Source: Hydrogenophaga sp. (GTDB taxonomy: Bacteria; Pseudomonadota; Gammaproteobacteria; Burkholderiales; Burkholderiaceae_C). Taken from it: DNA of 64,000 bases. Each line of letters begins with the position of its first letter. Position 1 is the stretch's first letter. Under the pieces are notes generated by a model. That model was not told the origin of the DNA. It made no database searches and saw nothing but the letters and a program-made list of their open reading frames with translations. The stretch covers positions 8,815 through 72,814 of the forward strand of contig NZ_JAOASO010000144.1 in NCBI RefSeq assembly GCF_030158645.1. Direction: 5' to 3'. The position numbers were made by a program, and so were the translations under genes. Shown one piece after another: positions 36,761 through 56,862 of the stretch.

Positions 36761-36836
36761 GTCCCGCCTTTCTGGCTGAGCGTTCTGCTCGGGTGGGTTC
36801 CTCCGCCGCAGTGTGTTCGCGGCTGAAGGCGCTTCC

Positions 36837-36850
36837 TGGAGCATGCTCAA
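36837..36850 (-). promoter_or_regulatory. FNR-type box upstream of the P-type ATPase
   Basis: TTGAG-CATG-CTCCA on minus strand; CACACT -10 at 36815-36810. Confidence 0.5.
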
Positions 36851-36907
36851 TGCCACCGGGAGACTTCGCATTCTGCGGCCACGCGCGGGCAATGAACCGC
36901 ATCTTTG

Positions 36908-36921
36908 TTGCGCAGCGTCAA
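36908..36921 (+). promoter_or_regulatory. FNR-type box upstream of cytochrome c
   Basis: TTGCG-CAGC-GTCAA; CACAAT -10 at 36943-36948. Confidence 0.55.
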
Positions 36922-36987
36922 TGGTTCGACGATGGGAGTGGCCACAATGGCTGGCAGCTCAACCGCGATCGCCCGACCCCGGCTGAC

Positions 36988-37353
36988 GTGAAGCGAAGGA
37001 GTTTCCTTGTGTCCCTGGCGTGCAGCTCGCGGGTGTCCACCTTGCTCGTCGCGGCGGCGCTGGCAGGTCCTGCCACGGCCCAGGGTCGCGGTGAGTTGCT
37101 GTACACCGCGCATTGCAGCGCCTGCCATTCGGAACAGATCCACTGGCGCTCTGCGAAGGCCGTGACGGACTGGACCAGCCTCAAGGCCGAGGTCGTCAAG
37201 TGGCAGGGCATGGCCAGGCTGGCGTGGAGCGAAGACGATGTGACCGACGTGGCACGCTTCCTGAACGAGCGCATCTACCGTTTTGAGACACCCCTTGCAA
37301 CGGCGTCCAAAGTTCCACCGAGCCTGCGGGCGCCCGGTGCAGGCGCTCCCTAG
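36988..37353 (+). CDS. Small periplasmic monoheme cytochrome c
   Basis: GTG start, signal ending PATA-Q, GELLYTAHCSACH. Confidence 0.8.
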   Translation: MKRRSFLVSLACSSRVSTLLVAAALAGPATAQGRGELLYTAHCSACHSEQIHWRSAKAVTDWTSLKAEVVKWQGMARLAWSEDDVTDVARFLNERIYRFETPLATASKVPPSLRAPGAGAP

Positions 37354-37404
37354 TCACCGCGTCGCACCTGCCATGTTCCTCACAACCCATCCAACGGCAA
37401 CCGA

Positions 37405-38118
37405 ATGGACATGACCATGAGATCCCTGCACAGCCACACCGAACGCCACCGGACGGACCGCATCGGCTGGTTGCGCGCTGCGGTGCTGGGTGCCAACGAT
37501 GGCATCGTCTCCACCGCCAGCCTGGTGGTCGGCGTGGCCGCCGCCGGATCGAGCCACAGCAACGTCCTGATCACAGGCGTGGCGGGGCTGGTGGCGGGGG
37601 CGATGTCGATGGCCGCGGGCGAGTACGTGTCGGTGCATTCACAGGCGGACACCGAGGCCGCCGACCTGCGGCGCGAGAAAGCGGAACTCGCGGCGGACCC
37701 GGTGGCGGAGCAACGCGAGTTGGCGTCGATCTACGTGGGCCGGGGGCTGGGGCCCGACCTGGCGCAGCAGGTGGCCGCACAGCTGATGGCGCATGACGCG
37801 ATCGGTGCCCATGGGCGCGACGAGCTCGGCATCTTCGACGCCCACCTGGCCCGCCCGATTCAAGCGGCGCTGGCCTCTGCGGCCAGCTTCGCCCTGGGCG
37901 CCCTGCTTCCGCTGGCCGTGACCGCCCTGGCCCCCGAGCGGGGCGTGATTGCCTGGGTCACCGGGCTTTCGCTCGCCTTCCTGGCCCTGCTGGGTGCTGT
38001 TGCCGCGCAGGTGGGCGGTGCCCGGGTGCTCGCCGGCGCCTGGCGCGTGTTTTTCTGGGGCGCTCTGGCCATGGGCATCACCGCGGCGGTGGGGTCCCTG
38101 TTTGGTGCGGTCGTGTGA
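37405..38118 (+). CDS. VIT1/CCC1 family iron/manganese transporter
   Basis: LRAAVLGANDGIVS, GAMSMAAGEYVSV, ARPIQAALASA. Confidence 0.93.
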   Translation: MDMTMRSLHSHTERHRTDRIGWLRAAVLGANDGIVSTASLVVGVAAAGSSHSNVLITGVAGLVAGAMSMAAGEYVSVHSQADTEAADLRREKAELAADPVAEQRELASIYVGRGLGPDLAQQVAAQLMAHDAIGAHGRDELGIFDAHLARPIQAALASAASFALGALLPLAVTALAPERGVIAWVTGLSLAFLALLGAVAAQVGGARVLAGAWRVFFWGALAMGITAAVGSLFGAVV

Positions 38119-38183
38119 TCGAGAACAAATCGATCAGAGCTTCACCCCTTCGTGAACCAGGCGCCCGTGTGGAGCGCACCCGC

Positions 38184-38455
38184 TCAAGGCCGAACGGCAA
38201 TTTCGTTGCGGACAGCCTTCACGCCGTTGACCCGACGGGCGAGGGATTCGGCGGTGGATTTTTCGGCGGCGCTTTTTGCGAAACCCGACAACATGACGGC
38301 GCCGTTGAGGGTTTCGACCCGGATGCTGGTCGCGTCCACCGTCTTGTTGTCGGCAAAGCGGCTCTTCACCCGGGTGGTGATGACCGTGTCGTCGACACAG
38401 GCACCCACGGATTCCTGGCCGCGCGTCACGGCACAGCCGGACGCGGTGAGCAACT
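38184..38455 (-). pseudogene. BON-domain lipoprotein with N-terminus apparently deleted
   Basis: LLTASGC lipobox then AVTRGQESVG..VDDTVITTRVKSRF...GAVMLSGFA; no hydrophobic signal or usable start in front. Confidence 0.65.
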
Positions 38456-38494
38456 CCAGGGCATCCCATCTTTTACGGACAGACTGTCCTGTCA

Positions 38495-38508
38495 TTGATT
38501 CAACTCAA
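38495..38508 (-). promoter_or_regulatory. FNR/ANR-type box facing the BON gene
   Basis: TTGAT-TCAA-CTCAA, 9/10 match to TTGAT-N4-ATCAA. Confidence 0.65.
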
Positions 38509-38573
38509 CGCCAGCGCAAGCAAGGGCGGCGCGAGCCGGCGCGGCGGACCGAGCCCTCGCGTGACCCGCTGCA

Positions 38574-38587
38574 TTGACACAGATCAA
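38574..38587 (+). promoter_or_regulatory. FNR/ANR box of the arc operon
   Basis: TTGAC-ACAG-ATCAA; CACCAT -10 at 38610-38615 places the box at -41.5. Confidence 0.85.
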
Positions 38588-38686
38588 GGGTCAGGGGGCA
38601 TGCGGGGTCCACCATGCAAGGCGATGCACCGTGAGTTCCTTGCCATCCTGGCTGGATTCGCATCTGCGTCGCAGGAGGCAGAGACC

Positions 38687-40138
38687 ATGAAGGATCCCGC
38701 AAACCCCGTGGCAACCGCCCCCGAAGCGCCCAGCGTTCAGGACCGGTTTCCCACCGCGTACACCATCCTCTTTGCGCTGATCGTCCTGATGGCCGTGCTC
38801 ACCTGGATCCTGCCCGCTGGCCAATACCAGCGCGTGGCCAATGAGGCTTTGGGCAAGGACGCGCCGGTGCCCGGCACCTACCAGGTGGTGGAGCCCGCGC
38901 AACAAGGTGTGTTCGACGTGTTGCTGGCGCCCATCACCGGCTTCTACAACCAGAGCACGGGCATGGCCAACGCCATCGACGTGTCGCTGTTCGTGCTCGT
39001 CATCGGCGGTTTTCTGGGTGTGGTGAACGCCACGGGCGCCATCAACACCGGCATCGAGCGCGTGATGCTGCGCCTCAAGGGCCGCGAGAAATGGATGATC
39101 CCCGCCCTGATGCTGTTGTTTGCCGCCGGCGGCAGCACCTACGGCATGGCCGAGGAAACGCTGGCGTTTTATGTGCTGCTGATTCCGCTGATGATCGCGG
39201 TGGGCTACGACGCGCTCACCGGCGTGGCCGTGATCATGGTGGGTGCGGGCATCGGCGTGATCGGGTCCACCATCAACCCGTTCTCCACCGCCATCGCTTC
39301 CAACGCGGCCGGCATTCCCTTCACCCAGGGCCTCGCCCTGCGGCTGGTGATCCTCGCGCTCGGCTGGTTGATCTGCGTGGCTTATGTGATGCGCTACGCC
39401 GAACGGGTGCGCAAGGACCCGGCGTCCTCGCTGGTGGCCGACCTCAAGGCGTCCAACGAGGCGCATTTCCTGCGCAACCGCGAGGACCATAGCGCATCGG
39501 TGCTCACCACCCGGCAGATGCTCATCCTGTTGATGTTCGGCGCCACCTTCGCCGCCATGGTCTGGGGCGTGGCATCGCAAGGCTGGTGGATGGCCGAGAT
39601 GTCGGCCCTGTTCCTGGCCTCTTCGATCGCGGTGGGCCTGGTGGCCTGGCTGGGCGAAAAACCCTTCACCACCGCCTTTGTCGACGGCGCGCGCGACCTG
39701 CTGGGCGTGGCCCTGGTGATCGGGCTGGCGCGCGGCATCGTGGTCATCATGGACCAGGGCAAGATCACCGACACCATCCTGCACACCTTCGAAGGCTGGA
39801 TCACCGGCATGCCCGACGTGGCGTTTGTCAACGCCCTGTTCGCCACCGAAGGCCTGCTCAGCCTGCTGGTGCCGTCCACCTCCGGGCTGGCGGTGCTGAG
39901 CATGCCCATCCTGGCGCCGCTCTCCGACTTCGCCGGCGTGCCGCGGAACCTGGCCGTGACCGCCTTCCAGACCGCGATCGGCATCACCAACCTGGTCACA
40001 CCCACCTACGCCGTGGTGGTGGGCGCGCTGGCCATTGGCCGGGTGCCCTACCAGCGCTGGGTGCGTTTCATCTGGCCGCTGATGCTGATGCTGACCGTGC
40101 TCAGCATGGCCAGCCTGAGCGCGGCGGTGCTGCTGTGA
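38687..40138 (+). CDS. YfcC-family arginine/ornithine antiporter (functional ArcD)
   Basis: RBS aggagg; [32 protein letters not shown]; first gene of the arc operon. Confidence 0.88.
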
Positions 40139-41382
40139 ACGCCGTCAGCGCCACCGATGCCGGTGCAGTGCGGCTGGGCGTGTATTCCGAAGTGGGCAAG
40201 CTGCGACGGGTGCTGGTGAGCGCGCCCGGCCTGGCGCACGAACGCCTGACGCCAGCCAACTGCGACGGGCTGCTGTTCGACGACGTGTTCTGGGTGCAGC
40301 AGGCCCGCACCGACCATTTCGACTTCGTCTCCAAGCTGCAGGACCGCGGCGTCGAGGTGCTGGAGATGGGCGAGTTGCTCGCCGACACCCTGGCCATCCC
40401 GGCGGCGCGCGAATGGGTGCTGCAACGCAGAATCACGCCCGACCACGTGGGCGTCGGCATGCTCGACGAGCTCAAGGGCTGGCTGTGGGACCTGCCCGCC
40501 GAAGCGCTGGCACGCTACCTCATCGGCGGTGTGGCGGTGCACGACCTGCCGTTCAAGCCCGCCGGCATGTTCGGGCCCTACCTGGGGGCCGACGGCTTCG
40601 TGCTGCCGCCGCTGCCCAACATGCTGTTCACCCGCGACACCAGCGCCTGGATCTACGGCGGCGTCACCCTCAACCCCATGCACTGGGCCGCGCGCCGCCA
40701 GGAAACGCTGCTGACCGCGGCGGTGTACCGGCACCACCCGCTGTTTGCGCAGGCCGGTTTTCCGGTGTGGTGGGGCGACCCCGACGTGGACCATGGCCCG
40801 GCCACGCTGGAGGGCGGCGACATCATGCCGATCGGTCACGGCGTGGTGTTGATCGGCATGGGCGAACGCACCACACCACAGGCGGTGGGGCAGCTGGCCC
40901 AGGCCCTGTTTGCGGCCGGTGCCGTGCAGCGCGTGGTGGCCTGCCAGATGCCGCAGTCCCGCGCGGCCATGCACCTGGACACCGTGTTTTCGTTCTGCGA
41001 CCGCGACACCGTGACCAGCTTCGTGGGCGTCGCGAACCAGGTCGTCTGCCACAGCCTGTACCCGACCGAACGCGGGGGCATCGACCACCGGCGCGAGAGC
41101 CAGTCGCTGTTCGAGGTGGTGGCGCAATGCCTTGGGCTGAAGGAGCTGCGCGTCATTCCCACCGGCGGTGACAGCTACGAGCAGGCGCGCGAACAGTGGG
41201 ACGACGGCAACAACGTGGTGGCCCTGGAGCCGGGCGTGGTGGTCGGCTACGACCGCAACACCCACACCAACACCTTGCTGCGCAAGGCCGGCATCGAAGT
41301 CATCACCATCCGCGGCAGCGAACTCGGCCGCGGCCGGGGCGGCGGCCACTGCATGACCTGCCCCATCTCTCGCGACGCTTGA
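40135..41382 (+). CDS. arcA: Arginine deiminase
   Basis: [51 protein letters not shown]. Confidence 0.97.
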
Positions 41383-41393
41383 AAGAAAAAACC

Positions 41394-42395
41394 ATGGCAT
41401 TCAACTTAAAGAACCGAAGCCTGCTGACCCTGCGCGACTTCACAGCGGACGAGATCGGCTTTCTGCTCAAGCTCGCCGCCGACCTGAAGGCCGCCAAGTA
41501 CGCCGGCACCGAGCAGCCGATGCTGCGCGGCAAGGAGATCGCACTGATCTTCGAGAAGGACTCCACCCGCACGCGCGTGGGCTTCGAGGTGGCGGCGCAC
41601 GACCAGGGCGCCACCGTCACCTACCTCGGCCCCTCGGGCAGCCACATCGGCCACAAGGAATCCATCAAGGACACGGCGCGTGTGCTGGGGCGGGTGTACG
41701 ACGCCATCGAGTACCGGGGCTTCGGTCAGGCGGTGGTGGAGACGCTGGCGAAGTGGTCGGGCGTGCCGGTCTACAACGGCCTGACCGACCAGTTTCACCC
41801 GACGCAGATCCTGGCCGACCTGTTGACCATGCGCGAGCACTGCGAGAAGCCGCTGCGCGAGATCGCCTTCTGTTTTCTGGGCGATGCCGGCAACAACATG
41901 GGCGACTCGCTGCTGATCGGGGCGGCCAAGCTGGGCATGGACGTGCGCCTGTGCGGGCCCGCCTCGCTGTGGCCCGACCAGACCATCATCGATGAAGCCC
42001 AGGCCCTGGCCCGCGACAGCGGGGCGCGCATGCTGTTGACCGAAGACGTGGCCGCCGGTGTGAAGGGCTGCGACTTTCTGTACACCGACGTGTGGGTCTC
42101 GATGGGCGAGCCGGAATCGGTCTGGGCCGACCGCATCCGCCTGCTGCTGCCCTACCAGGTGAACGCCGCGGCGATGGCGCTCACCGGTAACCCGCGCGTG
42201 CGCTTCATGCACTGCCTGCCCGCCTTTCACAACACCGAGACCGAAGTGGGCGCACAGATCGAGCGGCTGCACGGCATCACCGCCATGGAAGTCACCGACG
42301 AGGTGTTCGAGAGCCCGGCCTCCATCGTGTTCGACCAGGCGGAGAACCGCATGCACACCATCAAGGCGGTGCTGGTCGCCACCCTGGGCGGTTGA
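41394..42395 (+). CDS. arcB: Ornithine carbamoyltransferase, catabolic type
   Basis: [41 protein letters not shown]. Confidence 0.95.
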
Positions 42396-42396
42396 G

Positions 42397-43317
42397 ATGG
42401 CCCGCGTCGTGGTGGCCCTGGGTGGCAACGCACTGTTGCGGCGCGGTGAACCGGTGAGCGCGGCCACGCAGCGCGCCAACATCCGCCGCGCCGCGGTGGC
42501 CCTCGCCCAGCTCATGGCCGATGGACATCAGCTGGTCATCACCCACGGCAACGGACCGCAGGTGGGTTTGCTCGCGCTGCAGGGCGAGGCCGCCGGCCAG
42601 GCCGCCTTTCCGCTGGACGTGCTGGGTGCCGAAACCGAAGGGATGATCGGCTACGTGCTGCAGCAGGAGCTGGACAACGCCTTTGAGGGCGGTGCGCGTT
42701 TTGCGACGCTGCTGACGCAGGTGCAGGTGGACCCAGACGACCCGGCGTTTGCCGCGCCGAGCAAGCCGGTGGGTTCGGTCTACAGCGAGGCCGATGCCAA
42801 ACGGCTGGCCGAACAACGCGGCTGGTCCATCGCACCCGACGGCGATGCCTGGCGGCGCGTGGTGCCATCACCCCGGCCGGTTCGCATCCTGGAGATCGAG
42901 GTGATCCGCCTGCTGGTGGACCAGGGCGTGACCGTGATCTGCGCAGGCGGAGGCGGCATACCGGTGGCGCAGCTGACCGACGGGACCTGCGTCGGCGTGG
43001 AAGCGGTGATCGACAAGGACCACGCCAGCGGCCTTCTGGCCGCAGAACTGCAGGCCGACGCCTTCCTCATGTTGACCGACGTGCCCGCCGTGTACACCGG
43101 CTGGGGCACACCGGCCCAGCACGCGCTGGGCGACGTGACCCCTGATGAACTCGCCGCGCTCGACTTTGCCGCCGGCTCCATGGGCCCCAAGGTGCAGGCC
43201 GCGTGCGATTTCGTGAACCACGGCGGCGGCATGGCCGGCATCGGGGCACTGGAAGACGTGGCCGGCATTCTGATGCGGCGCGCCGGCACACGGGTCGTGC
43301 CGTCACACGGCACATGA
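42397..43317 (+). CDS. arcC: Carbamate kinase
   Basis: [38 protein letters not shown]. Confidence 0.97.
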
Positions 43318-43437
43318 GGTCTGTGGCTTGGATCCGCGACGCGCAGACCCGGGTCCGTGTGCGTCAGTGCATGGAGCGGAACAAATGCCGCGGGATCTGC
43401 GATACCCACGGCGTCGGCGTTGGCCCCCTGGAAGCGC

Positions 43438-44451
43438 TCAGTCTCTCAGTACTCGGTGCAACAGTTCGCGCGCCGGTGCGCTCGCCAGGGTGTTGGCCAG
43501 CGTGCTGAAGTGCGCCTGGGGAAGGGCCGCCGTCAGTTCCGGGCCCGCCTGCTGCATGGCCTCGACGAAGGCGGCGGCGCGAGCGTCGTCGAGGTCTGCG
43601 CGGGCCAGGATCAGGTTCACCGATCCGACCGTGGGCAACGGCGACTCGATGCCCGGGTAGGACTGGGCCGGGACCTCCATCCCCTTGAGCAATGGATAGC
43701 GGGCGAGGATGCCGGGAATCTGCGCTGGCGACGGCCCGATGAAGCGAGCCCCACCCGGCGACTGGGCCACCTGCACGAACCCAGGCCAGCCCTCACCCGC
43801 GCCCCACAGCGCATCCGCTTCGCCGGTCAGCACGATGCGGGGTGAATCGGCGGCGCGTTCGACATAGATGGCCTTGAAATCACGGTCGATGTCCAACCCG
43901 ATGCCCGTGAACACCTGACGGGCCAGCGCGACGAGCCCGCTGGTCCGCACGCCGAAGACGACGGGTTTGCCGGCCAGGTCTTCAAGGCGTCTCGCTGCGG
44001 ACGCTCTGGGCACAGCCAGCATGCCGGGGCTCGGGTACATCGCATACAGGATGCAAAGGCCGCCCGCGGGCCCTTTCTGAAGCACTTCGTCGGCGGACGT
44101 GCCCTGGATCAGGGCCATGTCCAGTTCGCCGCGCTGCAGGAGGTCGAGATTGTCGACCGTGCCGCGGGTGGGCCGCGCGTGCAGCCAGTCCCGGCCCTGG
44201 CGCCGGTTCAACACGGTCTGCAAGAGCTCGTCGTACTGCGAGAAGCCCCCGCCGGGCGTCGAGGTTCCCAGCCGCAGCGGCCGCCAGGCGGCAGGGACCG
44301 CAGACGGTGCGTTTCCTGCTGAAGGTTGGGTTGCGGCCTTGCGCGGCAAGGCCAGAAGACACGCACAAAAGGGCGCCGCCAGCAAGCAGCGGCGGCGCAG
44401 GCCCACCTTGGCCACCAGGGCCGAATCAAGAAGGGAACTGTCGCAGGGCAT
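43438..44451 (-). CDS. TAXI-family TRAP solute-binding protein (orphan)
   Basis: LGTSTPGGGF, TRGTVDNL, Tat-like RRRCLL leader. Confidence 0.8.
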   Translation of the reverse strand: MPCDSSLLDSALVAKVGLRRRCLLAAPFCACLLALPRKAATQPSAGNAPSAVPAAWRPLRLGTSTPGGGFSQYDELLQTVLNRRQGRDWLHARPTRGTVDNLDLLQRGELDMALIQGTSADEVLQKGPAGGLCILYAMYPSPGMLAVPRASAARRLEDLAGKPVVFGVRTSGLVALARQVFTGIGLDIDRDFKAIYVERAADSPRIVLTGEADALWGAGEGWPGFVQVAQSPGGARFIGPSPAQIPGILARYPLLKGMEVPAQSYPGIESPLPTVGSVNLILARADLDDARAAAFVEAMQQAGPELTAALPQAHFSTLANTLASAPARELLHRVLRD

Positions 44452-44643
44452 GGGAGCTCCTTGGCGGAAAGGGTGCCGGGCGGGTTGGGACGCACCGGAG
44501 CTCAATGTAGACGAACGCCCGGTTGGCTTGCGTCCGCTGCGGTTGTTCGGCCCGCATGGGCTTCTGGCCAAGCGTCAACCGCTGGATTCGGGTTGGGCGC
44601 TTCGCGGGCCAGTTCGAACGTGCGGCCGGTCAGCCGCGCACAG

Positions 44644-46185
44644 TCACCGGAACACCTTGACGGCCTGAGCCAGTCGTTGAGCACGACTGCCCAGCGATTT
44701 GGAAGCCTCGCTGGACTGCTCCACCATGGAGGCGTTCTGTTGCGTCATCTGGTCGAGCTGGCTCACCGCGGCATTGACCTGACCGATGCCCGTGCTCTGC
44801 TCCCGGGCTGAGCGGCTGATGTCGGTGATCATGCGGGTGACCGATTGGGCTTCCCTCAGGATGGATTCCATGGCGCGACCCGCCTCCGCGGTGAGCGCTT
44901 GTCCGTTCTCGACCCGCTCCGAACTGTCCGTGATCAAGGTCTTGATTTCCTTGGCTGCCTGCGCGCTGCGCTGGGCCAGGTTGCGAACTTCGCCCGCCAC
45001 GACGGCAAATCCCCGGCCCTGTTCTCCTGCGCGCGCGGCTTCCACCGCTGCATTGAGCGCCAGGATGTTGGTCTGGAAAGCAATGCCATCGATCACCGAA
45101 ATGATGTCGGTGATGCGCCGTGAACTCGTGCTGATTTCGTCCATGGTCTTCACCACGTCGTTCACGATCAGGCCACCGGCCCGTGCGGCCTCACTGGCTT
45201 TTTCGGCCATCGTGCTGGCCTGCACGGCGGTTTCACTGGTGGTGTTGACGGTGGCGGTCATCTGCTCCATGGACGCAGCGGTTTCCTCCAGGTTGGAGGC
45301 GGCTTGCTCGGTGCGCACACTGAGATCCCGGTTGCCTTCGCTGATTTCGCGGCTGACGTTGCTCACGCCGTCGATCTGGACGCTGACATCGTCCAGCAAG
45401 GCCCGAAGGTTCAAGCCGGACTGGTTGACCGTGCGCATCAGCATGCCGATTTCGTCCACCCGATCCAGCTGTTAGTTGCTGCCGGGCTGACCGGCGGCCA
45501 CCGATTGCGCCTGGCGCACCACGCGCTGCAACGGCGCCACGATTTGCCGCTCCAGCCACCACCCCAGCGCCGCCAACATGACGGCCACCTGGGCGCTCTG
45601 CACCACGGCATCCGACGTGGGCAGGAGGTAGAACACCGACGCGGTGATCGCACAGAACGCCATCACCATGGGACAGAGCACGCGGGCGCGCAGCGACGCT
45701 GTTTGCGTCCACGACAAGAGGCGTGCCGCGCCGGTGCGCACGATGAGCCCCTTGTGAAAGGCCAGAGAGCCTTGCTCTCCTCTGACGAAACGGCCGTACA
45801 GGTTCTCGGCGGCCTGCACTTCCGTGCGCGAGGGTTTGGTGCGCACCGACATGTAGCCCACCAGCCGCCCCTCGCGAACCACCGGCGTCGCATTGGCCCG
45901 AACCCAGTAATGGTCCCCATCCTTGCGGCGGTTTTTCACCAGCGCCGTCCAGCTCTGGCCCGCTTTGAGGGTGGCCCACATGTCGGCAAACGCTTCACGG
46001 GGCATGTCGGGGTGACGAACCAGGTTGTGTGGTTGACCCACGATTTCTTCGGCGGTGAAGCCGCTGACCGCCAGGAAAGACTCGTTGGCGTAGGCGACGT
46101 GACTGTCCACGTTTGTCGTGGACAGAAGTGTGGCGTTCTCCGGGAAGTCGTATTCGCGTTGCGTGACAGGAAGGTTCTGGCGCAT
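44644..46185 (-). pseudogene. aer: Aer-like PAS aerotaxis receptor interrupted by one in-frame TAA (45472-45474)
   Basis: MRQNLPVTQREY PAS, HPDMP, KNRRKDGDHYWV; reading frame continues AAC TAA CAG CTG GAT CGG GTG GAC GAA into HAMP and MCP domains. Confidence 0.88.
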
Positions 46186-46215
46186 GGGGAACTCCTAAGG
46201 TGTTGAGTCATAGGC

Positions 46216-47491: not shown

Positions 47492-47518
47492 GGGGGTCTT
47501 TCTGCTGGGTTGGACTGG

Positions 47519-48175: not shown

Positions 48176-48263
48176 GCAAACCGGCTCAAGTGGCCGCCTT
48201 GTTGCCCGTAGAGATCGACCCGGCCCGGGTGGGCTTGAGGGGTGTTTTGCGCAGATTCGACGC

Positions 48264-49991: not shown

Positions 49992-50647
49992 GCCACCGCG
50001 CGACGAGGCGCTGCGTTGGATCCCCGCTCGATCACCACTTCCTGGTCGAGCATGGAGGCTGCGTGATTGAGTTCAGACTGCGCGATCACCACGGTCATGT
50101 CTTTGCCGCGCAAGCCGAAGATCACGTCCGAGAGGCGTTGTGACAAGGCGGGTGCCACCCCTTCAAACGGCTCGTCGAGCAACAGCAGGCGTGTGCCGAC
50201 CGCCAGTGCGCGGGCCAGGGCCACCAGCTTCTGCTGGCCGCCCGACAGCAACAAGGCGCGGCGGTCCTTCATGTCCTTGAGCTCGGGCAGCACCCGGTAC
50301 ACCATCTCGAGACACGCCTGCGGCTGCAGGCTGGACGACACCCAGACGGGAATCAGGATGTTCTCCTCCACCGTCAGCTCGGGCACGAGACCGCGGTCTT
50401 CAGGCATGTAACCAATGCCCAGGGCGGCACGCGCGTGGGGCGGCATCGTTGCCAGGTCCTTGCCGTCCCACAGGAGCCGGCCCTGCGTGGGCTTCAGGTG
50501 GCCCATGACCGTGCGCAGCAAGGTGGTCTTGCCCGCCCCGTTGCGCCCGACCAGGCCCACCATCTGGCCCACGGGGACCTCCAGGGAGAAGCCCCGCAGG
50601 GCCTGGACGGACTGGATGGTGACGTGCACCGAATCGATTGTCAGCAT
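49988..50647 (-). CDS. Liv-type ABC transporter ATPase (LivF-like)
   Basis: GRNGAGKT, LSGGQQK, LLLDEP. Confidence 0.92.
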   Translation of the reverse strand: MLTIDSVHVTIQSVQALRGFSLEVPVGQMVGLVGRNGAGKTTLLRTVMGHLKPTQGRLLWDGKDLATMPPHARAALGIGYMPEDRGLVPELTVEENILIPVWVSSSLQPQACLEMVYRVLPELKDMKDRRALLLSGGQQKLVALARALAVGTRLLLLDEPFEGVAPALSQRLSDVIFGLRGKDMTVVIAQSELNHAASMLDQEVVIERGSNAAPRRAVA

Positions 50648-50648
50648 G

Positions 50649-51419
50649 TCAGTGCCCTCGCTTGATCGAACCCGTGACGTAGCGCTGGACCTGGGGATCG
50701 TCCAGCACGGTCGACGGTGGGTCATCGGCAATCACGCGACCGCTGTAGAACGCGATCACCCGGTCCGAATACCGCGTGACGATTTCCATGTCGTGCTCGA
50801 CGAACAGAACGGTCACCCGCTCGCTCGCCAGGGCCGCGCTGATGGTGTCCATCATGGGAAATTTTTCGTCCACCGACACGCCGCTGGTGGGCTCGTCGAG
50901 CAGCAGCAGCTTGGGTCTGCCGGTCAATGCCATGGCAATGTCCAGCAACTTGCGAACACCGCCGGGCAATTCCGACACCCGTCGGTGGGCGTGCTCCTCG
51001 AGACTGAACTTGGACAGCATCGCCATGGCGCGGTCGATCCGGTCGGACGCGTGGGCCGGTCGCCAGAACGACTGATGCCCATCGTTGCAGGCGGCGGCCA
51101 CGAGCATGTTGTCCAGGGCGCTCATGTCCAGCGCCAGTTGCGGAATCTGGAACGAGCGCGCCACACCCAATCCGGTGATCCGCCTCGGTCCCAGGCCCGC
51201 GATGGACTGGCCATCGAGTTCGATCGTTCCGGCGTCCGGCTTGAGGTAGCCCGTCACCATGTTGACGAACGTGGTCTTGCCTGCGCCGTTGCTGCCGATC
51301 AGACTGACCCGCTGGCCGGTGGGGATGTCGATGTTGACGTTGTCGGCGGCGGTCACGGCGCCAAAGGACTTCATCAGGCCCCGTGCCGACAGCATCGTCT
51401 GGGTCTTGGCGGTCGTCAT
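50649..51419 (-). CDS. Liv-type ABC transporter ATPase (LivG-like)
   Basis: GSNGAGKT, ARSFQI, LLLDEPTSG, VEHDM. Confidence 0.92.
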   Translation of the reverse strand: MTTAKTQTMLSARGLMKSFGAVTAADNVNIDIPTGQRVSLIGSNGAGKTTFVNMVTGYLKPDAGTIELDGQSIAGLGPRRITGLGVARSFQIPQLALDMSALDNMLVAAACNDGHQSFWRPAHASDRIDRAMAMLSKFSLEEHAHRRVSELPGGVRKLLDIAMALTGRPKLLLLDEPTSGVSVDEKFPMMDTISAALASERVTVLFVEHDMEIVTRYSDRVIAFYSGRVIADDPPSTVLDDPQVQRYVTGSIKRGH

Positions 51420-52387
51420 GCGGAGCCTCCTTCCTGGCCGGTGGTCTTCTTTTTGCGTCGGTTCGTCCAGAGACTCCCGAGTCCCAGGGGCAGGAAGCGG
51501 ATGACGACCAGCAAAAACAGGCCCATAGCCAATTGCCAGGTGTTGGGGAAATACAGGTTCGAGAAGGAACGCACCACCTCGACGACGAACGAACCCACGA
51601 ACACCGCGAGCATGCTGTGGTGCCCCGCCAGGATGGCGACAAACACAAACTCACCCGACGTCGTCCAGTAGGCGAAGTTGGGTTCGATGTGGCCGAGCGA
51701 CATGAGCGTGAGTGCACCACCGACACCCCCCATGAACGAAGCCAGCAGGTAGTTGAGCGCCACCGCCTGCGACACCGATGCACCCAGGTACTCCACCCGG
51801 AGTTCGTTTTCACGGATCGCCAGCGAAACCAGGCCGCGCACCGAGTCCACGTAGATGCGGGCCAGGGTGGCCAGCACGCCCACCACCAGCACCGCCACGC
51901 TGTACAGCAGCCAGTTGGATTGCTCGGACGCGATGCTTTGGCCAAACAGCGTGGGTCGGCTGACATTGAAGCCATCCGAGCCACCCAGGGCTTCCGTCTT
52001 CACCAGGATGCCGTAGAGCACCATCGAGATGGCCAGCGTCAACATCGCAAAGAAGATGCCCCGGTAACGCGACAACAGCGGTGCGAACGGCAGTGCGCAC
52101 AGGACCGCGGCCCCGCCGCCGATGAGGACCATCAGGAAGGCATCGGTGATGCCCAGGTGGTTGGCGGCCATGGCGCTGGCATAGCCGCCCACGGCAAACA
52201 CAAAGCCCTGGCCGAAAGACACCACACCGATGCGCATCAACAGCACGATGCCCAGGGACACCAGACCGTGCGACAGCGCCATGGTCGACAAGAAGAGCAG
52301 CCACTTGGGCATGGCCAGGCCGGCTGCCAGAAACAGCACGGTCAGCGCCGTGCCGATCAGAAGCGTTTTTTTCAAGCTGTTGGTCAT
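51416..52387 (-). CDS. Liv-type ABC permease (LivM-like)
   Basis: VSFGQG, FFAMLTLA, GGSDG, SLAIRENE. Confidence 0.9.
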   Translation of the reverse strand: MTNSLKKTLLIGTALTVLFLAAGLAMPKWLLFLSTMALSHGLVSLGIVLLMRIGVVSFGQGFVFAVGGYASAMAANHLGITDAFLMVLIGGGAAVLCALPFAPLLSRYRGIFFAMLTLAISMVLYGILVKTEALGGSDGFNVSRPTLFGQSIASEQSNWLLYSVAVLVVGVLATLARIYVDSVRGLVSLAIRENELRVEYLGASVSQAVALNYLLASFMGGVGGALTLMSLGHIEPNFAYWTTSGEFVFVAILAGHHSMLAVFVGSFVVEVVRSFSNLYFPNTWQLAMGLFLLVVIRFLPLGLGSLWTNRRKKKTTGQEGGSA

Positions 52388-53280
52388 CAGATCTTCCTCG
52401 CCTGGATGCGATGAAACAGACCCTCGGGCCGAAACATGAGCACGATGGCCATGGCGATGTAGATGCTGAAGAGTTCTGCCGCAGGCCAGGTGTGAACCGC
52501 CAGTGCACGCGCCAGACCGACGATCACGGCACCGATCGCCGCACCCTCGATGCTGCCCAGGCCACCAATGATCACCACCGCAAACGAAACGATGATCACA
52601 CCCGAGGCCAGACCCGGCTGGACGGAGATCATGGGCGACGTCAGCGCACCAGCCAGCGATGCCAGGAAGATGCCGAACATGAAAGCGAGGGTGCAGACCT
52701 TCGCCACGTTGATGCCCATGCTGGCCGCGATCTCGTTGCTGTGGATCACCGCCAGCACGATCTTGCCGGTGCGGGTGCGGTTCAGGCCCCACCAGACACC
52801 CAGGCCACAGACGATGGCGAAGCCGATCAGGACGAAGTCGTAGCCCACGTAAGACATGAGCCCGATATCGAGCACGCCGAACAGCATGTAGGGTTCGGTC
52901 ACGTAGTACGGGACCGCGCCCCAGATCAGCTTGGTCACGTCCTCCAGGATCAGGAACAGCGCATAGGTGACCAGCACCAGCAGCACTTCATCGCGTCCAT
53001 AGAAAGAGCGCAGCAACAGCCGCTCCACCAGGGGCGCAAGCAGGAGCGACACGGCCAGGGCCGCCAGCAGCATGAACAGCAGGGACCAGGCCGGTGACAT
53101 GCCGGCACCCACCGACCAGGACACAAACGATGCGGTGACGTAAGCCCCGACCGCGTAAAAGCTGCCGTGGGCAATGTTCAGGATTTTCAGGACGCCAAAG
53201 ATCAGCGTCAGCCCCAGGGCCACGATGAAGAGCCAGGAGGCATAAATGATGCCGTCAAAAAGGATGGTGAGTGCAAGCAT
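52387..53280 (-). CDS. Liv-type ABC permease (LivH-like)
   Basis: ALGLTLIFGVLKILNIAHG, VVIIGGLGSIEGA. Confidence 0.9.
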   Translation of the reverse strand: MLALTILFDGIIYASWLFIVALGLTLIFGVLKILNIAHGSFYAVGAYVTASFVSWSVGAGMSPAWSLLFMLLAALAVSLLLAPLVERLLLRSFYGRDEVLLVLVTYALFLILEDVTKLIWGAVPYYVTEPYMLFGVLDIGLMSYVGYDFVLIGFAIVCGLGVWWGLNRTRTGKIVLAVIHSNEIAASMGINVAKVCTLAFMFGIFLASLAGALTSPMISVQPGLASGVIIVSFAVVIIGGLGSIEGAAIGAVIVGLARALAVHTWPAAELFSIYIAMAIVLMFRPEGLFHRIQARKI

Positions 53281-53364
53281 GTGGGATTCCGCTCCAGGTG
53301 GAGGACCGCTGGAACCGGACGCAGCACCATCGATGCCGGCCGGGACAACTCGCGTGTTGGACCA

Positions 53365-53388
53365 TGCCCCTCTGCAAACAGAGGGGCA
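53365..53388. other. Intercistronic hairpin after the binding-protein gene
   Basis: Perfect 10-bp stem tgcccctctg-caaa-cagaggggca; typical mRNA-stabilising position. Confidence 0.6.
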
Positions 53389-53427
53389 CGGCGCAGACGA
53401 TCGTGAAAGGTCGTTAAACGACGCGGG

Positions 53428-54732
53428 TCAGCACTTGGCGCCCTTGAAGCCGCTCTTGATCCAGTCTTCGGTCTTCATGTCGGCGGGCGGATTCACGCAC
53501 TCGGCGGGGAATCGCATGATGTCCACCAGATCCACCCGCTTCTTCTCGGGGTTGTACTTGGTGGTGCCGATGGCGGTGTCCTGGATGGCCTGTTGGCCTT
53601 TGCCATTGACCATGCGGATCATGCCGGCAGGGGACTCCCATGAGGAGCCGCGCAGGGCTGCCGCGAGCTGCTCGGGGTTGGGCTTCTTGCCACCGTTGGC
53701 GGCCATCGCCTTTTCAACCGCCAGCTTCAAGCCCATCAGGCTTTGCGCCATGCGGTAGGGCGCCTGCACGGGGATGACTTTCTCGCGGTCCTCGTACAGC
53801 TTGAACCACCAGCGGTTCAAGGGGGTGTCGGGTGACATCAGGCCGTAAGCACCGCGAGCACCGAGGATCACGCCATCGGGCATCTTCTCGCCCAGACCCG
53901 GCAGCACGTGATCGCCCGCCGACAGGACCAGTTGCGAGCGGCGCATGACACCGCGCGGGCCCGCTTGCAGGATGAACGACTGCAGGTCGCCACCCCAGAG
54001 ACTGGAGTGCGTGACGCTGGCGGGCGAGGACAGCAGCGACGAGATCTCCGTGCCGTACTGGCCAGCACCGAACTTGGGGCGCAGGTCCTGGCCCGTCTTG
54101 GCCTGCGGGAACAGCTGCTCTGCGCTGAGCTGGAAATCCTTGAGCGAATCGTGACCCCAGGCGTAGTCCTGATTGATGTAGTTGATGGTCTCGACCTTGG
54201 CGTTCTTGGCCTTCAGATAGCGACCGAGCGAGACGTTGTCCATCGCGGCGTGTGCGGCCGTGCGGAAGACATAGCTGTAATCGCGCTCTTCAAAAATACG
54301 GGGGGTGCCGCAGTCGTACAGGATGAGGAAACGCTTCATTTCCTCGGCCACGGGCGCCACGGCCAGGCAGTCGCCCGAACCCACGTAACCCACCACGGCA
54401 TCCACTTTCTCGCGGTCGTACAGGTTGCGCAGTTCCTGCACCTGCTTGGTCGCACCACCGGCCTCGTCCACGTAGATGGCCTCGATGCGCATCCCGCCGA
54501 AACCCTTGTTGTTGTAGGGTGCCGGCGCCTGGCCGTTGTTGAAAGCCTCGACCAGCAGCTTGGCTCCGTTCACAGCCGGGATGCCGAAGCTGTCCGCCGC
54601 CTGGCCCGAAAGGAAGCTGACAATACCGACCCGGAAAGTTTCCTGCGCTTGCACCTGAGTGGACAGGCCAGTCCCCAGCAACATCGCCGCAGCCACCGCC
54701 GACAGCTTCACCAACAGTTTGTTCCGTCTCAT
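53428..54732 (-). CDS. Liv-family ABC substrate-binding protein
   Basis: Signal peptide ending QVQA, RVGIVSFLSG, YVFRTA, DYAWG. Confidence 0.9.
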   Translation of the reverse strand: MRRNKLLVKLSAVAAAMLLGTGLSTQVQAQETFRVGIVSFLSGQAADSFGIPAVNGAKLLVEAFNNGQAPAPYNNKGFGGMRIEAIYVDEAGGATKQVQELRNLYDREKVDAVVGYVGSGDCLAVAPVAEEMKRFLILYDCGTPRIFEERDYSYVFRTAAHAAMDNVSLGRYLKAKNAKVETINYINQDYAWGHDSLKDFQLSAEQLFPQAKTGQDLRPKFGAGQYGTEISSLLSSPASVTHSSLWGGDLQSFILQAGPRGVMRRSQLVLSAGDHVLPGLGEKMPDGVILGARGAYGLMSPDTPLNRWWFKLYEDREKVIPVQAPYRMAQSLMGLKLAVEKAMAANGGKKPNPEQLAAALRGSSWESPAGMIRMVNGKGQQAIQDTAIGTTKYNPEKKRVDLVDIMRFPAECVNPPADMKTEDWIKSGFKGAKC

Positions 54733-55058
54733 CACTTGTCTCCAGAATTTTTTGAACGACCAGCACAGCCCTGCGTCGAAAAGACCGCAGGGAACAATGA
54801 CCAGAGTCACCAGCGCCCAGCCTTGCCGGTGGGCGCCACCATCGGGGCTCAGATCACCGTCTGATGGCCCTGAAGGTGAAGGCATCCTATCGACCGCCCA
54901 GGGCATGACTTGTCCCTGCAGCGACAAGACGCCGACAACGGCCGCGAGACCCCATGGAAACCCTAGGCGCCCGAACCGTTGTCGACGTGTGAAGGCGGGT
55001 GGGTTTTGCAGGCGCGTGCGCGGGCACGGACCATGGGGCGCGTGAGGCGATACACACC

Positions 55059-55406
55059 ATGAAGACCGATGCACAACACGAGATGGGCGTGTAGGCCGAA
55101 CTCGCATCGGAGCCGGCGGTGGATTCGTCGCACAGCGGCGTTGCCGAACAGATGGTGCGCCCCATCACGGGTGTGCGCGATGGCACCGACCGCATCACGC
55201 TCAAGACCACCTGCACGCCCTCGAACCTCGCCGGGCGCATGGAGCAGGCGTTGGGTCACCAGGCCGAGCGCGAGACCAAGGCCATCGAGGTCACGGTCAA
55301 TGGGGCCTCCGCCACGTTTTGCGGGCAGGTGCATTCGACCCGGCCGCCCACCACCACACCCCAGCCAGGAGCTCGGCGCGCCCAGCCACCTGCGCGGTGT
55401 GAGTGA
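55059..55406 (+). pseudogene. Decayed multi-BON (OsmY-like) gene
   Basis: MKTDAQHEMGV*AELASEPAVDSSHSGVA joined to EQMVRPITGV...IEVTVNG...GQVHS; TAG at 55092-55094, internal deletion, eroded 3' end. Confidence 0.72.
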
Positions 55407-55470
55407 GATTGACGCTCCCACCCGCGACCATCGCGTCACCCCCGACAGAACGCTCCATCGAGATAGCGGT

Positions 55471-55995
55471 TCAGGCGGGAGCCTGGTCCTGCAACGGAGG
55501 CAGCGAGACGGACACCGAAGGCACCCGTTTGAGTTCCAGCAGAAAGCGCCGCAGCGCCGGATCGCGCTGGCATTGGGGCACCACACGTTCGGTCAGCGCC
55601 AGCCGGGTCAGCGCCGGGTGCCCGCACAAGCGCTCCAGATCGTCCAGCGCCTTGGCTTGGCCGGAGCCGCCACAGGTGCAGAACAGCGCCACGTGGGTCA
55701 GCGCCGCGTGATGTCGCCTCACCCAGGTTCGAACGGGACTGGCCACGCCCCAGAACCACACGGGCGTGCCCACAATCACCAGGTCGTAGTCGCCCGGGCG
55801 GTGGCGCCCCTGTTCGATGGCCGGGTGCAAGCCCAACAGCGCTTCGAGCGACGACCGCAGATAGCCGACCACCCCCCGGCGCGGTTGGCGGTCCTGGATG
55901 CGTTCCAGGTCCGCGTGGCAGCGAGACGCGATCTGCCGGGCGACGAATTCGGTGTGCCCACTGCCGGAGTAATAAACGACCAGGATACGGTTCAT
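55471..55995 (-). CDS. Flavodoxin-family protein
   Basis: ILVVYYSGSGHT, IVGTPVW, ALFCTCGG. Confidence 0.88.
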   Translation of the reverse strand: MNRILVVYYSGSGHTEFVARQIASRCHADLERIQDRQPRRGVVGYLRSSLEALLGLHPAIEQGRHRPGDYDLVIVGTPVWFWGVASPVRTWVRRHHAALTHVALFCTCGGSGQAKALDDLERLCGHPALTRLALTERVVPQCQRDPALRRFLLELKRVPSVSVSLPPLQDQAPA

Positions 55996-56181
55996 GGTGC
56001 CATTCCTTTCATGACCACCCACACATCACGTCATCAGCCGCAGCGGCACGGGCGAACTGTCGACGTCCTCCAGGACCGGGGGCGCAAGGGTCGCGCCGTA
56101 CACCGGGTTGCTCCCGTTCACGCGTGCCGTGGTCAAGCCATCGACGGCGATGAAGCGCCGAACATGGTTCGCTCCGGACCG

Positions 56182-56646
56182 TCATGGTTGAGCGCGCCAG
56201 CTGCCATCGGGCTGACGGCAGGCCGTGCCCCACATCTGCTCAACGCGCCCGCCGATGACGGCGTTCACCTGGTATTCGCGGCAAGGGCCGTCCTCGCTGC
56301 CGTAGGTGCGTGTGGGTACCACGGTGTAGCGGTACCCGGTGTCCGGGTTGACCCACTGGCTGGGCACACCGGTGCGCACCGTCTCCAGCGTCTGTGCGGT
56401 CAGGTAGCGGTCGCGCTCGGCCATGGAACGACCCACCGCGCCGCCCACGGCCACGCCGGTGAGCGTGCCCAGGATCACCGCCGCGGTGCGACCGCTGCCG
56501 TGGCCGAACTGGGAGCCCACCACGCCACCGAGCAGGCCGCCGATCACCATGCCGCTTTGCTCCTGTGTCACGGGGGTCTGGCAGGCCACCAGCGCCAAGG
56601 CGGCCAGCACCATGGGCAACGAACGTTTCAGAGAGCTTGTGTGCAT
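56182..56646 (-). CDS. RT0821/Lpp0805-like (17-kDa antigen) glycine-zipper lipoprotein
   Basis: Lipobox LVAC, glycine zipper GGLLGGVVG, WVNPDTG, CREY, GTACRQPDGSW. Confidence 0.88.
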   Translation of the reverse strand: MHTSSLKRSLPMVLAALALVACQTPVTQEQSGMVIGGLLGGVVGSQFGHGSGRTAAVILGTLTGVAVGGAVGRSMAERDRYLTAQTLETVRTGVPSQWVNPDTGYRYTVVPTRTYGSEDGPCREYQVNAVIGGRVEQMWGTACRQPDGSWRAQP

Positions 56647-56715
56647 GGTGAAGGTCCAGCAACGTCGCGGCGCGCGGCGGATAGCCCAGTCTGTGGGGGA
56701 CAGCGCGCGGCGCGC

Positions 56716-56729
56716 TTGAGCGTGCTCAA
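56716..56729 (-). promoter_or_regulatory. FNR-type box upstream of the lipoprotein
   Basis: Palindrome TTGAG-CGTG-CTCAA; CAGACT -10 at 56693-56688 gives -41.5 spacing. Confidence 0.7.
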
Positions 56730-56792
56730 TGCCGGCGCAGCTGGTCACGCCCCTGGGCGTGGCGCCACCGGCAGCGCCTGCGTGCCCCCGCA

Positions 56793-56806
56793 TTGATCGC
56801 ACTCAA
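56793..56806 (+). promoter_or_regulatory. FNR-type box upstream of the host-attachment/degP operon
   Basis: TTGAT-CGCA-CTCAA; TAGATT -10 at 56829-56834 gives -41.5 spacing. Confidence 0.8.
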
Positions 56807-56862
56807 GCGTGGGGGTTCTCGTGGGTCGTAGATTGGGTGCCCTGAACACCCAAGGACACGTC

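Follow-up and report, generated by a model that had tools for sequence, protein, structure and literature searches.

Putative FNR-family class II promoters of two operator classes in Hydrogenophaga sp., with parallels in known low-oxygen survival regulons

Introduction

In Pseudomonas, ANR and DNR act as a two-tier cascade, and the arcDABC promoter of Pseudomonas aeruginosa, the subject of work by Gamper, Galimand, Haas and colleagues in 1991, is reportedly ANR-dependent. In Burkholderia cenocepacia J2315, the low-oxygen-activated (lxa) stress-gene cluster carries TGA-N6-TCA, an inverted repeat of 4 bp around a spacer of 6 bp, at numerous intergenic positions (Sass et al. 2013, PMC3721108; Cullen et al. 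2018, PMC6127331). The same papers name as lxa members the BON gene BCAM0280, the cytochrome c gene BCAM0284, the cation-transporting ATPase gene BCAM0318, USPs, Hsp20 and a nitroreductase, and place Anr-related CRP-family regulators in or near the locus (PMC3721108, PMC6127331). The DosR dormancy regulon of Mycobacterium tuberculosis, with its CtpF-like ATPase, Hsp20, USPs and nitroreductases, is discussed in PMC3721108. In Bradyrhizobium diazoefficiens, FixK2 is a cluster-less CRP/FNR regulator that acts on TTGA-N6-TCAA-type boxes under microoxia, and the genes induced by microoxia include host attachment genes (bll5315, bll4645) together with USP, CBS and nitroreductase genes (PMC6515984, PMC9104804). 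The present study analyzes boxes of this type in Hydrogenophaga sp.

Results

The window, that is the whole stretch of DNA analysed, comprises 64 kb of Hydrogenophaga sp. (GCF_030158645.1, NZ_JAOASO010000144.1, positions 8,815-72,814 of the forward strand). Both strands were scanned for boxes with at most one core mismatch followed by NANNNT at 21-22 nt, and the only combinations found were the six boxes of the original prediction and one at 29822, all intergenic, the six or seven sites lying within 27 kb. The starts and spacings of the paired boxes were as predicted, namely 36837/36908 (71 bp), 38495/38574 (79 bp) and 56716/56793 (77 bp). Four match TTGA-N6-TCAA exactly (38495, 38574, 56716, 56793) and two (36837, 36908) have one core mismatch each. 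All of the proposed hexamers (CACACT, CACAAT, AAAGAT, CACCAT, CAGACT, TAGATT) are present 21 or 22 nt past the box, so that an A/T-anchored -10 in six of six boxes agrees with class II (-41.5) geometry and gives predicted starts at 36803, 36955, 38461, 38622, 56681 and 56841, matching those proposed. A search of these gaps for a complete sigma-70 promoter found none. The four exact boxes compare with 0.46 expected per window from shuffles, and none of 100 shuffles reached four. The whole genome has 61 exact boxes where composition predicts about 10. Of these, 39 (64%) fall in intergenic or 5′-edge DNA, which makes up 20% of the total, as opposed to deep coding sequence. Their -10 hexamers lie most often at 22 nt (14 cases, with a further 5 at 21 nt, versus a background of about 3), which is also the modal spacing in relatives. 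Elsewhere in the genome the genes preceded by boxes include ccoN, a USP gene, a hemerythrin gene, a second cytochrome c gene and a second Host_attach gene. These patterns support the reading of the six boxes as real, predicted promoters of the FNR-family class II type.

Relatives retain boxes D, E and F, together with their -10 hexamers, in flanks that have otherwise diverged. Box D (38574-38587, plus strand, TTGACACAGATCAA) is an exact canonical FNR/ANR box with its -10, CACCAT, at 38610-38615 and a predicted start near 38622. Behind it on the plus strand lies an arginine deiminase operon (38687-43317), with arcA, arcB and arcC together, consisting of a YfcC/DcuC-type antiporter as first gene (38687-40138; PF03606, NF008611), arginine deiminase (40150-41382; Pfam ADI), ornithine carbamoyltransferase (frame 41196-42395, with a start probably near 41390; Pfam OTCace) and carbamate kinase (42397-43317; Pfam AA_kinase). 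Box D is kept at -112/-113 from the ATG in eight of ten congeners within diverged surrounding DNA, and the arc operon stands as a canonical target of the FNR/ANR type. Box E (56716-56729, minus strand) is an exact extended palindrome, reading TTGAGCACGCTCAA toward the gene for a 17-kDa glycine-zipper lipoprotein (56182-56646, minus strand), which is accompanied by a Flavodoxin_4 gene (55471-56022, minus strand). With its -10 CAGACT at 56693-56688 (predicted start near 56681), the combination of box and CAGACTG is invariant across five Hydrogenophaga loci, and in relatives the box is followed by the identical lipoprotein-Flavodoxin_4 gene pair. Box F (56793-56806, plus strand, TTGATCGCACTCAA), exact and with TAGATT at 56829-56834 (predicted start near 56841), precedes genes for a Host_attach/baeRF_family12 (eRF1-like) protein (56863-57249, plus strand) and a DegP/HtrA protease (57283-58662, plus strand); box F with TAGATT or TAAATT at 22 nt is kept in L013-L016, L153 and L156. 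Both the lipoprotein box and the Host_attach box are conserved across Hydrogenophaga.

Box C (38495-38508, minus strand, TTGAGTTGAATCAA toward BON) is likewise exact, with AAAGAT at 38473-38468 and a predicted start near 38461. The single-BON-domain gene has 38184-38495 on the minus strand as its longest frame (Pfam BON, E = 2.8e-21), beginning at an ATG at 38495 that abuts the box, and the predicted transcript start falls within this frame; the real start is likely the GTG at 38408, behind an AGGAA ribosome-binding site. BON orthologues carry a full lipoprotein signal peptide that the copy in the window lacks, and this copy may be decaying. No box was found in promoter position upstream of the BON orthologues. 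The additional site at 29822-29835 (plus strand, ATGATCCATGTCAA, then CACACT at 22 nt) lies in a 530-bp gap upstream of a PepSY-DUF2271-reductase-ApbE operon; an orthologous alignment with G202 was sought at this site and none was found, and it is a weak candidate for a regulatory site.

The remaining pair is more difficult to interpret. Box A (36837-36850, minus strand; TGGAGCATGCTCAA on the plus strand, TTGAGCATGCTCCA toward the ATPase) has CACACT at 36815-36810 with a predicted start near 36803, and faces a type II, Ca/cation-like P-type ATPase of 880 aa (34118-36760, minus strand; Pfam E1-E2_ATPase, Cation_ATPase_N/C) whose best NCBIfam matches are Ca-type P-ATPases, every one below cut-off. 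Box B (36908-36921, plus strand, TTGCGCAGCGTCAA) has CACAAT at 36943-36948 with a predicted start near 36955, upstream of genes for a small cytochrome c with a CSACH motif (37009-37353, plus strand) and a VIT1-family iron/manganese transporter (37405-38118, plus strand). An alternative explanation is that this pair is a chance look-alike, with the ATPase and cytochrome c-VIT1 genes outside the regulon and only four promoters real. Intergenic DNA contains as many as 297 boxes with one mismatch, which at 29% of the total is hardly an enrichment, and with the stricter -10 pattern 16 occur genome-wide with a hexamer at 21-22 nt where about 9 are expected from other spacings, that is, roughly half by chance; the pair is therefore suggestive rather than proven. 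In addition, no box was found upstream of any ATPase or VIT1 orthologue. Against a chance origin, two of just 16 strict one-mismatch sites in 3.7 Mb stand back to back, 71 bp apart, in one gap, where a rough estimate of such pairs expected genome-wide is 0.03; box A and its -10 closely resemble a promoter form recurrent in the genus, TTGAGCATGCTCAA-N22-CACACT; and lxa includes members of the ATPase and cytochrome c families (PMC3721108). On balance we regard chance as rather unlikely. The original prediction had counted the ATPase, cytochrome c-VIT1 and BON genes as members, but their boxes are not conserved, and because the orthologues examined have no promoter box the case for membership is drawn from this genome.

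Two operator classes can be distinguished among the boxes, each associated with its own set of genes. The canonical class, TTGA[TC]N4[AG]TCAA, occurs upstream of arc and ccoN, and the extended class, TTGAGC-N2-GCTCAA, marks stress islands of the genus that contain USP, Hsp20, BON, GroEL, nitroreductase, CBS, cytochrome c and Host_attach genes, with dense box islands in the congeners G152, G165, G194 and G207; in these relatives, genes resembling USP, Hsp20, nitroreductase and GroEL were identified by inspection of their translations. Across 61 congeners, TTGAGCNNGCTCAA has 71 island-clustered occurrences versus 22 for the reversed control. Position 5 is G in 0/16 arc and 0/26 ccoN half-sites and in 16/18 half-sites of island boxes (Fisher p = 7e-8, arc vs islands), the island count taking in only the additional boxes, those without a match to the search pattern. 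Class assignment is not clean, because boxes C and F are mixed, each pairing a canonical with an extended-class half. In principle, one oxygen-sensing FNR/ANR protein could occupy all six boxes as one regulon, the TTGAG/CTCAA halves being tolerated variation. The TTGA-N6-TCAA core and the -10 spacing are common to all sites, both half-site types are combined in boxes C and F, a test for over-representation of G at position 5 among the intergenic boxes of this genome relative to base composition found none, and ANR and DNR sites in Pseudomonas are not known to be distinguishable by sequence. Nevertheless this G is absent from all 42 arc and ccoN half-sites and almost always present in island promoters, and the number of extended-class boxes follows the presence of a second regulator, so we consider one protein for all sites improbable.

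Two regulators of the FNR family are encoded in the genome, both with an E--SR recognition helix. A homologue of Fnr on C62, its N-terminus cut off by the contig end, has 44% identity to E. coli FNR, an equivalent of C122 and the helix LETVSR. The paralogue (C33:10249-11253) adjoins a PAS histidine kinase, has no Cys cluster, a Tyr at the C122 position and the helix HETVSR (ETVSR recognition), and scores 84 bits against FNR, 49 against DNR and 43 against FixK2. The 12 genomes that bear the paralogue have a mean of 3.5 extended-class boxes versus 0.59 in the 49 without it (Mann-Whitney p = 2e-5), and the paralogue gene is located no more than a few kb from such boxes; this co-occurrence could reflect shared carriage on one accessory island. 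A canonical box, TTGATGTGCATCAA, at C33:11272 upstream of the paralogue gene hints at a cascade from FNR to the paralogue, which is not general since the paralogue gene in G207 has no exact box in front. That the variant boxes are read by a NO- or redox-responsive DNR/NNR-like regulator, with nitrosative stress or denitrification as its signal rather than the lack of oxygen itself, is very doubtful, as the adjoining PAS kinase, the lack of the FNR cysteines as in DNR/NNR proteins with the E--SR helix kept, and a box upstream of a NarK-like MFS transporter gene in this genome are outweighed by the far closer relation of the paralogue to FNR than to DNR or FixK2 and by a target set made up of genes for general stress and dormancy instead of nir/nor/nos.

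Discussion

The reading that we consider probable is that the three intergenic regions hold six activator-dependent class II promoters of the FNR/CRP type with two operator classes, used by FNR and its paralogue in a regulon for survival at low oxygen of the type seen in lxa and FixK2. An FNR-family dimer would bind TTGA-N6-TCAA, with the centre of the site some 41 bp upstream of the start, and bring RNA polymerase to a weak -10 that lacks a -35. The arc operon, through box D, would be a target of the oxygen-sensing FNR/ANR protein, as would ccoN in the genus. The lipoprotein-flavodoxin, Host_attach-DegP and BON genes, and probably the ATPase gene, would use the variant operator with TTGAG/CTCAA halves, ideally TTGAGC-N2-GCTCAA, and we infer that this is most likely read by the paralogue without iron-sulfur cysteines. 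Somewhat more tentatively, and with a little less than even confidence, the cluster-less paralogue may have evolved TTGAGC-N2-GCTCAA as its own operator, different from the canonical FNR box of ccoN and arc, and control a mobile, patchy island of dormancy type (eRF1-like Host_attach, BON, Hsp20, a GroEL paralogue, USP), whose promoters are recruited to new genes in the window; if so, these genes would be the P-type ATPase, the cytochrome c-VIT1 pair and the BON gene without a signal peptide.

The original prediction described a hidden hypoxia or dormancy regulon, a single programme driven by back-to-back promoter pairs. Its FNR-family class II promoters and the arc operon as canonical target hold, and the gene set does resemble such a programme, but with two operator classes a single programme is too simple. 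Nor is pairing a device, since inter-box distances in relatives are 44, 72, 77, 86 and 333 bp. The regulon is not hidden or new either: BON, cytochrome c and cation ATPase genes are already found with the same TGA-N6-TCA in lxa (PMC3721108, PMC6127331), and Bradyrhizobium induces host attachment genes under microoxia, including one that has been marked as a target of FixK2 (PMC6515984).

Given the literature parallels (PMC3721108, PMC6127331, PMC6515984, PMC9104464), the six boxes are probably one local instance of a regulon for survival at low oxygen that has already been described in Burkholderia and rhizobia. This would extend the lxa/FixK2-type stress regulon to Comamonadaceae. It also yields a prediction of how this environmental genus of mainly aerobic hydrogen oxidisers may respond to oxygen loss, with ATP from arginine fermentation alongside genes for the envelope, for protein quality and probably for translation arrest. 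What is established about FNR-type control is unchanged, and the split of operators into two classes, matched by a second regulator, offers a simple, testable case of FNR paralogues dividing a regulon.

Among the described systems, lxa shares with Hydrogenophaga the order Burkholderiales, operator copies clustered in intergenic gaps of stress genes (here in the window and in congener islands) and, at family level only, BON, cytochrome c and ATPase genes in the window and a USP gene and regulator elsewhere in the genome. It differs in that the Hydrogenophaga genes adjoin three gaps in 20 kb, interspersed with unrelated genes and with the regulator on another contig, and arc, 17-kDa lipoprotein-flavodoxin, VIT1 and Host_attach-DegP were not found among the lxa genes in the portions of the reports consulted. 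Similarity to FixK2 consists of a cluster-less regulator and a set of Host_attach, USP, CBS and nitroreductase genes, although the Hydrogenophaga paralogue is closer to FNR than to FixK2 and its putative operator favours G at position 5. The arc locus recalls arcDABC of Pseudomonas as an antiporter-headed deiminase/carbamoyltransferase/carbamate kinase operon with an FNR-type box at the class II position, but the antiporter is YfcC/DcuC (PF03606) rather than APC-family ArcD. The likeness to ANR-DNR is that of an oxygen sensor joined by another protein of its family that has separate targets, and that to DosR is one of analogous gene content, under another regulator family and another motif.

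Results

Six FNR-type boxes, designated by start position as A (36837), B (36908), C (38495), D (38574), E (56716) and F (56793), occupy three intergenic gaps of the window (contig C144:8815-72814), which belongs to a MAG of 3.7 Mb and 66% G+C with species of Hydrogenophaga as its nearest named relatives. In the first gap, box A faces a type II P-type ATPase gene on the minus strand (34118-36760) and box B the divergent genes for a small cytochrome c (37009-37353) and a VIT1 transporter (37405-38118). In the second, box C faces a single-BON gene on the minus strand (38184-38495) and box D a divergent arginine deiminase (arc) operon (38687-43317) encoding a YfcC/DcuC-type antiporter, ADI, OTC and carbamate kinase. 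The third gap has minus-strand genes for a 17-kDa glycine-zipper lipoprotein (56182-56646) and a flavodoxin (55471-56022) on the side of box E, and divergent genes for a Host_attach/baeRF_family12 protein (56863-57249) and DegP (57283-58662) on the side of box F. Exact TTGA-N6-TCAA occurs in the window only at 38495, 38574, 56716 and 56793, against 0.46 occurrences expected from shuffles; a single core mismatch separates each of the boxes at 36837 and 36908 from this pattern. Rechecking of positions confirmed the distances of 71, 79 and 77 bp between paired boxes given in the original prediction, and the six -10 hexamers that it quoted are also right, starting 21 or 22 nt past the box, which is the spacing for an FNR site at -40.5/-41.5. 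Scanning the whole window on both strands for boxes with at most one core mismatch and NANNNT at 21-22 nt returned these six and a candidate seventh at 29822-29870 (ATGATCCATGTCAA, 22 nt, then CACACT), all intergenic. The seventh lies in a 530-bp gap upstream of a PepSY-DUF2271-reductase-ApbE operon; its orthology to a near-box in G202 was rejected because the alignment shows none. No complete sigma-70 promoter was predicted within the three gaps, which is consistent with activator-dependent promoters.

The genome has 61 exact boxes, whereas base composition predicts about 10 and scrambled half-sites occur 0-30 times. DNA that is intergenic or no more than 90 nt from a 5′ end makes up 20% of the genome and contains 39 of the 61, fractions that are approximate given the crude GC3-based finder used for whole-genome gene calls. 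The spacing of the -10 hexamer from those 39 boxes has a sharp peak at 22 nt (14 boxes), with 5 at 21 nt, against a background of about 3 at other spacings. Boxes with the right -10 spacing lie upstream of genes for the cbb3 oxidase (ccoN), a USP, hemerythrin-like proteins, a DksA-type zinc-finger protein, a flavodoxin-like-fold reductase and a DUF465 protein, and these targets are an ordinary FNR-type set. One-mismatch variants were judged by counts and spacing profiles, a PWM from exact boxes being blind to core mismatches. Their 297 intergenic occurrences, a 29% share, are barely over background; with a stricter -10 pattern, 16 have a hexamer at 21-22 nt compared with about 9 expected from other spacings, so that any single one-mismatch site with a -10 stands at roughly even odds. 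Two of those 16 are boxes A and B, back to back in the same 250-bp gap, for which the chance estimate is about 0.03 per genome, and box A toward the ATPase gene (TTGAGCATGCTCCA ... ACACACTG) closely resembles a recurrent promoter of the genus, TTGAGCATGCTCAA-N22-CACACTG. Judged from sequence, this first pair (36837/36908) is probably functional.

Conservation in relatives differs among the targets. Eight of the 10 congeners having the operon carry the arc box in exact form at -112 to -118 relative to the ATG, and in these eight a CAnCAT-type -10 stands at constant distance, the remaining upstream DNA being unalignable. The 17-kDa lipoprotein and Host_attach promoters are kept at four named Hydrogenophaga loci as well as in additional islands, with the box, the -10 (CAGACTG or TAGATT) and the 22-nt spacing invariant. 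The idea that back-to-back pairing is itself a regulatory device was not upheld: the Host_attach and 17-kDa boxes, 77 bp apart in the window, are separated in relatives by 44 bp (congener G165), 72 bp (G207 and locus L015 of H. aromaticivorans D2P1), 77 bp, 86 bp (L016) or 333 bp (L013/L014, with an inserted gene). Since the distance varies and every box remains in front of its own gene, fixed spacing can be rejected, and the pairing is simply two independent promoters in one shared gap. For the ATPase orthologues (77-88% identity) a box was found upstream in 0 of 7 genomes, a near-box beside the orthologue in G173 being oriented the opposite way; the VIT1 orthologues are preceded by neither a cytochrome c gene nor a box; and no exact box accompanies BON orthologues at 28 of 29 loci, the single exception (G153) having its box just past the apparent start codon, within the coding frame.

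Several features of the neighboring genes may be recorded here. A YfcC/DcuC-family transporter (38687-40138) replaces the APC-type ArcD in the arc operon, likewise in nine congeners. Between the lipoprotein and flavodoxin genes, a 51-aa open frame (56026-56181) with coding-like GC3 and no Pfam match fills a gap of 160 bp; the corresponding gap in G207 (L156) measures just about 45 bp. A second Pfam match of the Host_attach protein (56863-57249), to baeRF_family12 (eRF1-like), suggests a ribosomal role rather than attachment; a sequence search of this protein against solved structures gave no significant match, and the baeRF_family12 match is its one tie to eRF1-like proteins.

The window copy of the BON gene is unusual at 38405-38508. 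All 29 orthologues examined encode a lipoprotein with a normal signal peptide, e.g. MKIATALLAAVATFSLVQITGC, while the window copy keeps the lipobox region LLTASGCAVTRGQ but the hydrophobic segment is gone (MTGQSVRKRWDALE...). The ATG at 38495 of the longest BON frame touches box C, and the predicted transcript start at 38461 is inside the frame. A working promoter would most likely mean translation from the GTG at 38408, behind AGGAA, and a BON protein of 74 aa that has no signal peptide. The window copy may instead be decaying. Box D as a promoter shared with BON was rejected, since inspection of the minus strand shows no -10 at the right distance.

Two operator classes could be distinguished. 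The arc boxes (eight genomes) and ccoN boxes (30 of 30 genomes) read TTGA[TC]-N4-[AG]TCAA, here class 1, and G at position 5 was found in none of 16 arc half-sites and none of 26 distinct ccoN half-sites. The ccoN box, e.g. TTGATGTAAGTCAA, is at about -72 from the start codon in all 30 Hydrogenophaga genomes (L159-L188), with GACACT or CACACT at 22 nt, and is a useful positive control for the FNR operator of the genus. The boxes of the 17-kDa lipoprotein (e.g. TTGAGCACGCTCAA), Host_attach and second cytochrome c genes, as well as box A, have TTGAG and/or CTCAA halves (class 2) and in many cases form the 12-bp palindrome TTGAGC-N2-GCTCAA. Of the six window boxes, D belongs to class 1 and both A and E to class 2, while C and F are mixed and B falls clearly into neither class. 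The palindrome occurs 71 times in 61 congeners compared with 22 for the reversed control, and clusters as islands in G152, G165, G194 and G207. In the six islands inspected (L153-L158), with genes named by tblastn with own-genome proteins and by translations rather than by Pfam scan, class-2 boxes lie upstream of genes for a triple-BON protein, a GroEL paralogue, USPs, Hsp20, a nitroreductase, a CBS protein, DUF2934-like proteins, DegP, cytochrome c, Host_attach and the 17-kDa lipoprotein-flavodoxin, with CACACT, TAGAGT, CAGACT, TAGATT or TAGGCT at 21-22 nt. The island triple-BON protein has no obvious signal peptide, and the GroEL paralogue in L153 is apparently down to a 115-aa remnant. Among additional island boxes that the search pattern had not picked, 16 of 18 halves are of the G5 type (Fisher p = 7e-8 vs arc).

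The genome encodes about 18 CRP/FNR-family proteins. A true Fnr homologue at the end of contig C62 (53555-54037), close to ccoN, is 44% identical to E. coli FNR across residues 90-243 and has the C122-equivalent Cys and the helix LETVSR; the gene is truncated by the contig end, which places the N-terminal Cys cluster region outside the assembly. A paralogue at C33:10249-11253 has the ETVSR helix and its best scores to FNR structures (84 bits; DNR 49, FixK2 43), with Tyr at the C122 position and the N-terminal Cys cluster absent. It belongs to a second, small low-oxygen cluster (C33:7755-12911; L002, L019, L020) with boxes at C33:8243, 8878 and 11272, alongside a PAS histidine kinase (PAS-PAS) and further copies of the cytochrome c and Host_attach genes. 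These neighbors have their own upstream boxes, except for the single box at C33:11272, located between the divergent regulator and kinase genes. In this genome the paralogue gene is preceded by a canonical box, TTGATGTGCATCAA, which tentatively hints at a cascade from FNR to the paralogue; the arrangement was not seen in G207. About 8 of the roughly 18 CRP/FNR genes, on C163 (three side by side), C45, C137, C89 and C148, form a further paralogue group, with a helix of the VRREGVTEA type and a CECY motif at the C-terminus.

Orthologues of the cluster-less paralogue were found in 12 of 61 genomes. Palindromes average 3.5 per genome in these 12; the remaining 49 average 0.59 and never exceed 2 (Mann-Whitney p = 2e-5). 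Each of the six genomes with at least 4 palindromes has the paralogue, and its gene sits within a few kb of class-2 palindromes. Because class-2 boxes track the paralogue and the arc and ccoN boxes form a distinct class 1, we infer that class-2 sites would be read by the paralogue and class-1 sites by FNR.

Discussion

Control of arcDABC by ANR is familiar, although a YfcC-type antiporter is present here instead of the APC-type ArcD. A broader parallel is the low-oxygen-activated (lxa) locus of B. cenocepacia, where a TGA-N6-TCA motif recurs at 17 points between genes. The locus includes a BON protein, cytochrome c, cation ATPase, USPs, Hsp20, nitroreductase and Anr-related regulators, and it supports persistence under anoxia (PMC3721108, PMC6127331). 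One Anr-related regulator, Anr2, is required for anoxic survival (PMC9104464). In B. diazoefficiens, microoxia induces genes for host-attachment proteins, USP, CBS and nitroreductase, and bll5315 was flagged as a FixK2 target (PMC6515984). Given the likeness to lxa, FixK2 and ANR-arcDABC, the window boxes are a sound further example of an already known kind of regulon. Specific to this case are the membership of the 17-kDa lipoprotein-flavodoxin and VIT1 genes, a variant operator with a probable dedicated paralogue, and the ATPase, cytochrome c-VIT1 and BON genes as apparently recent recruits.
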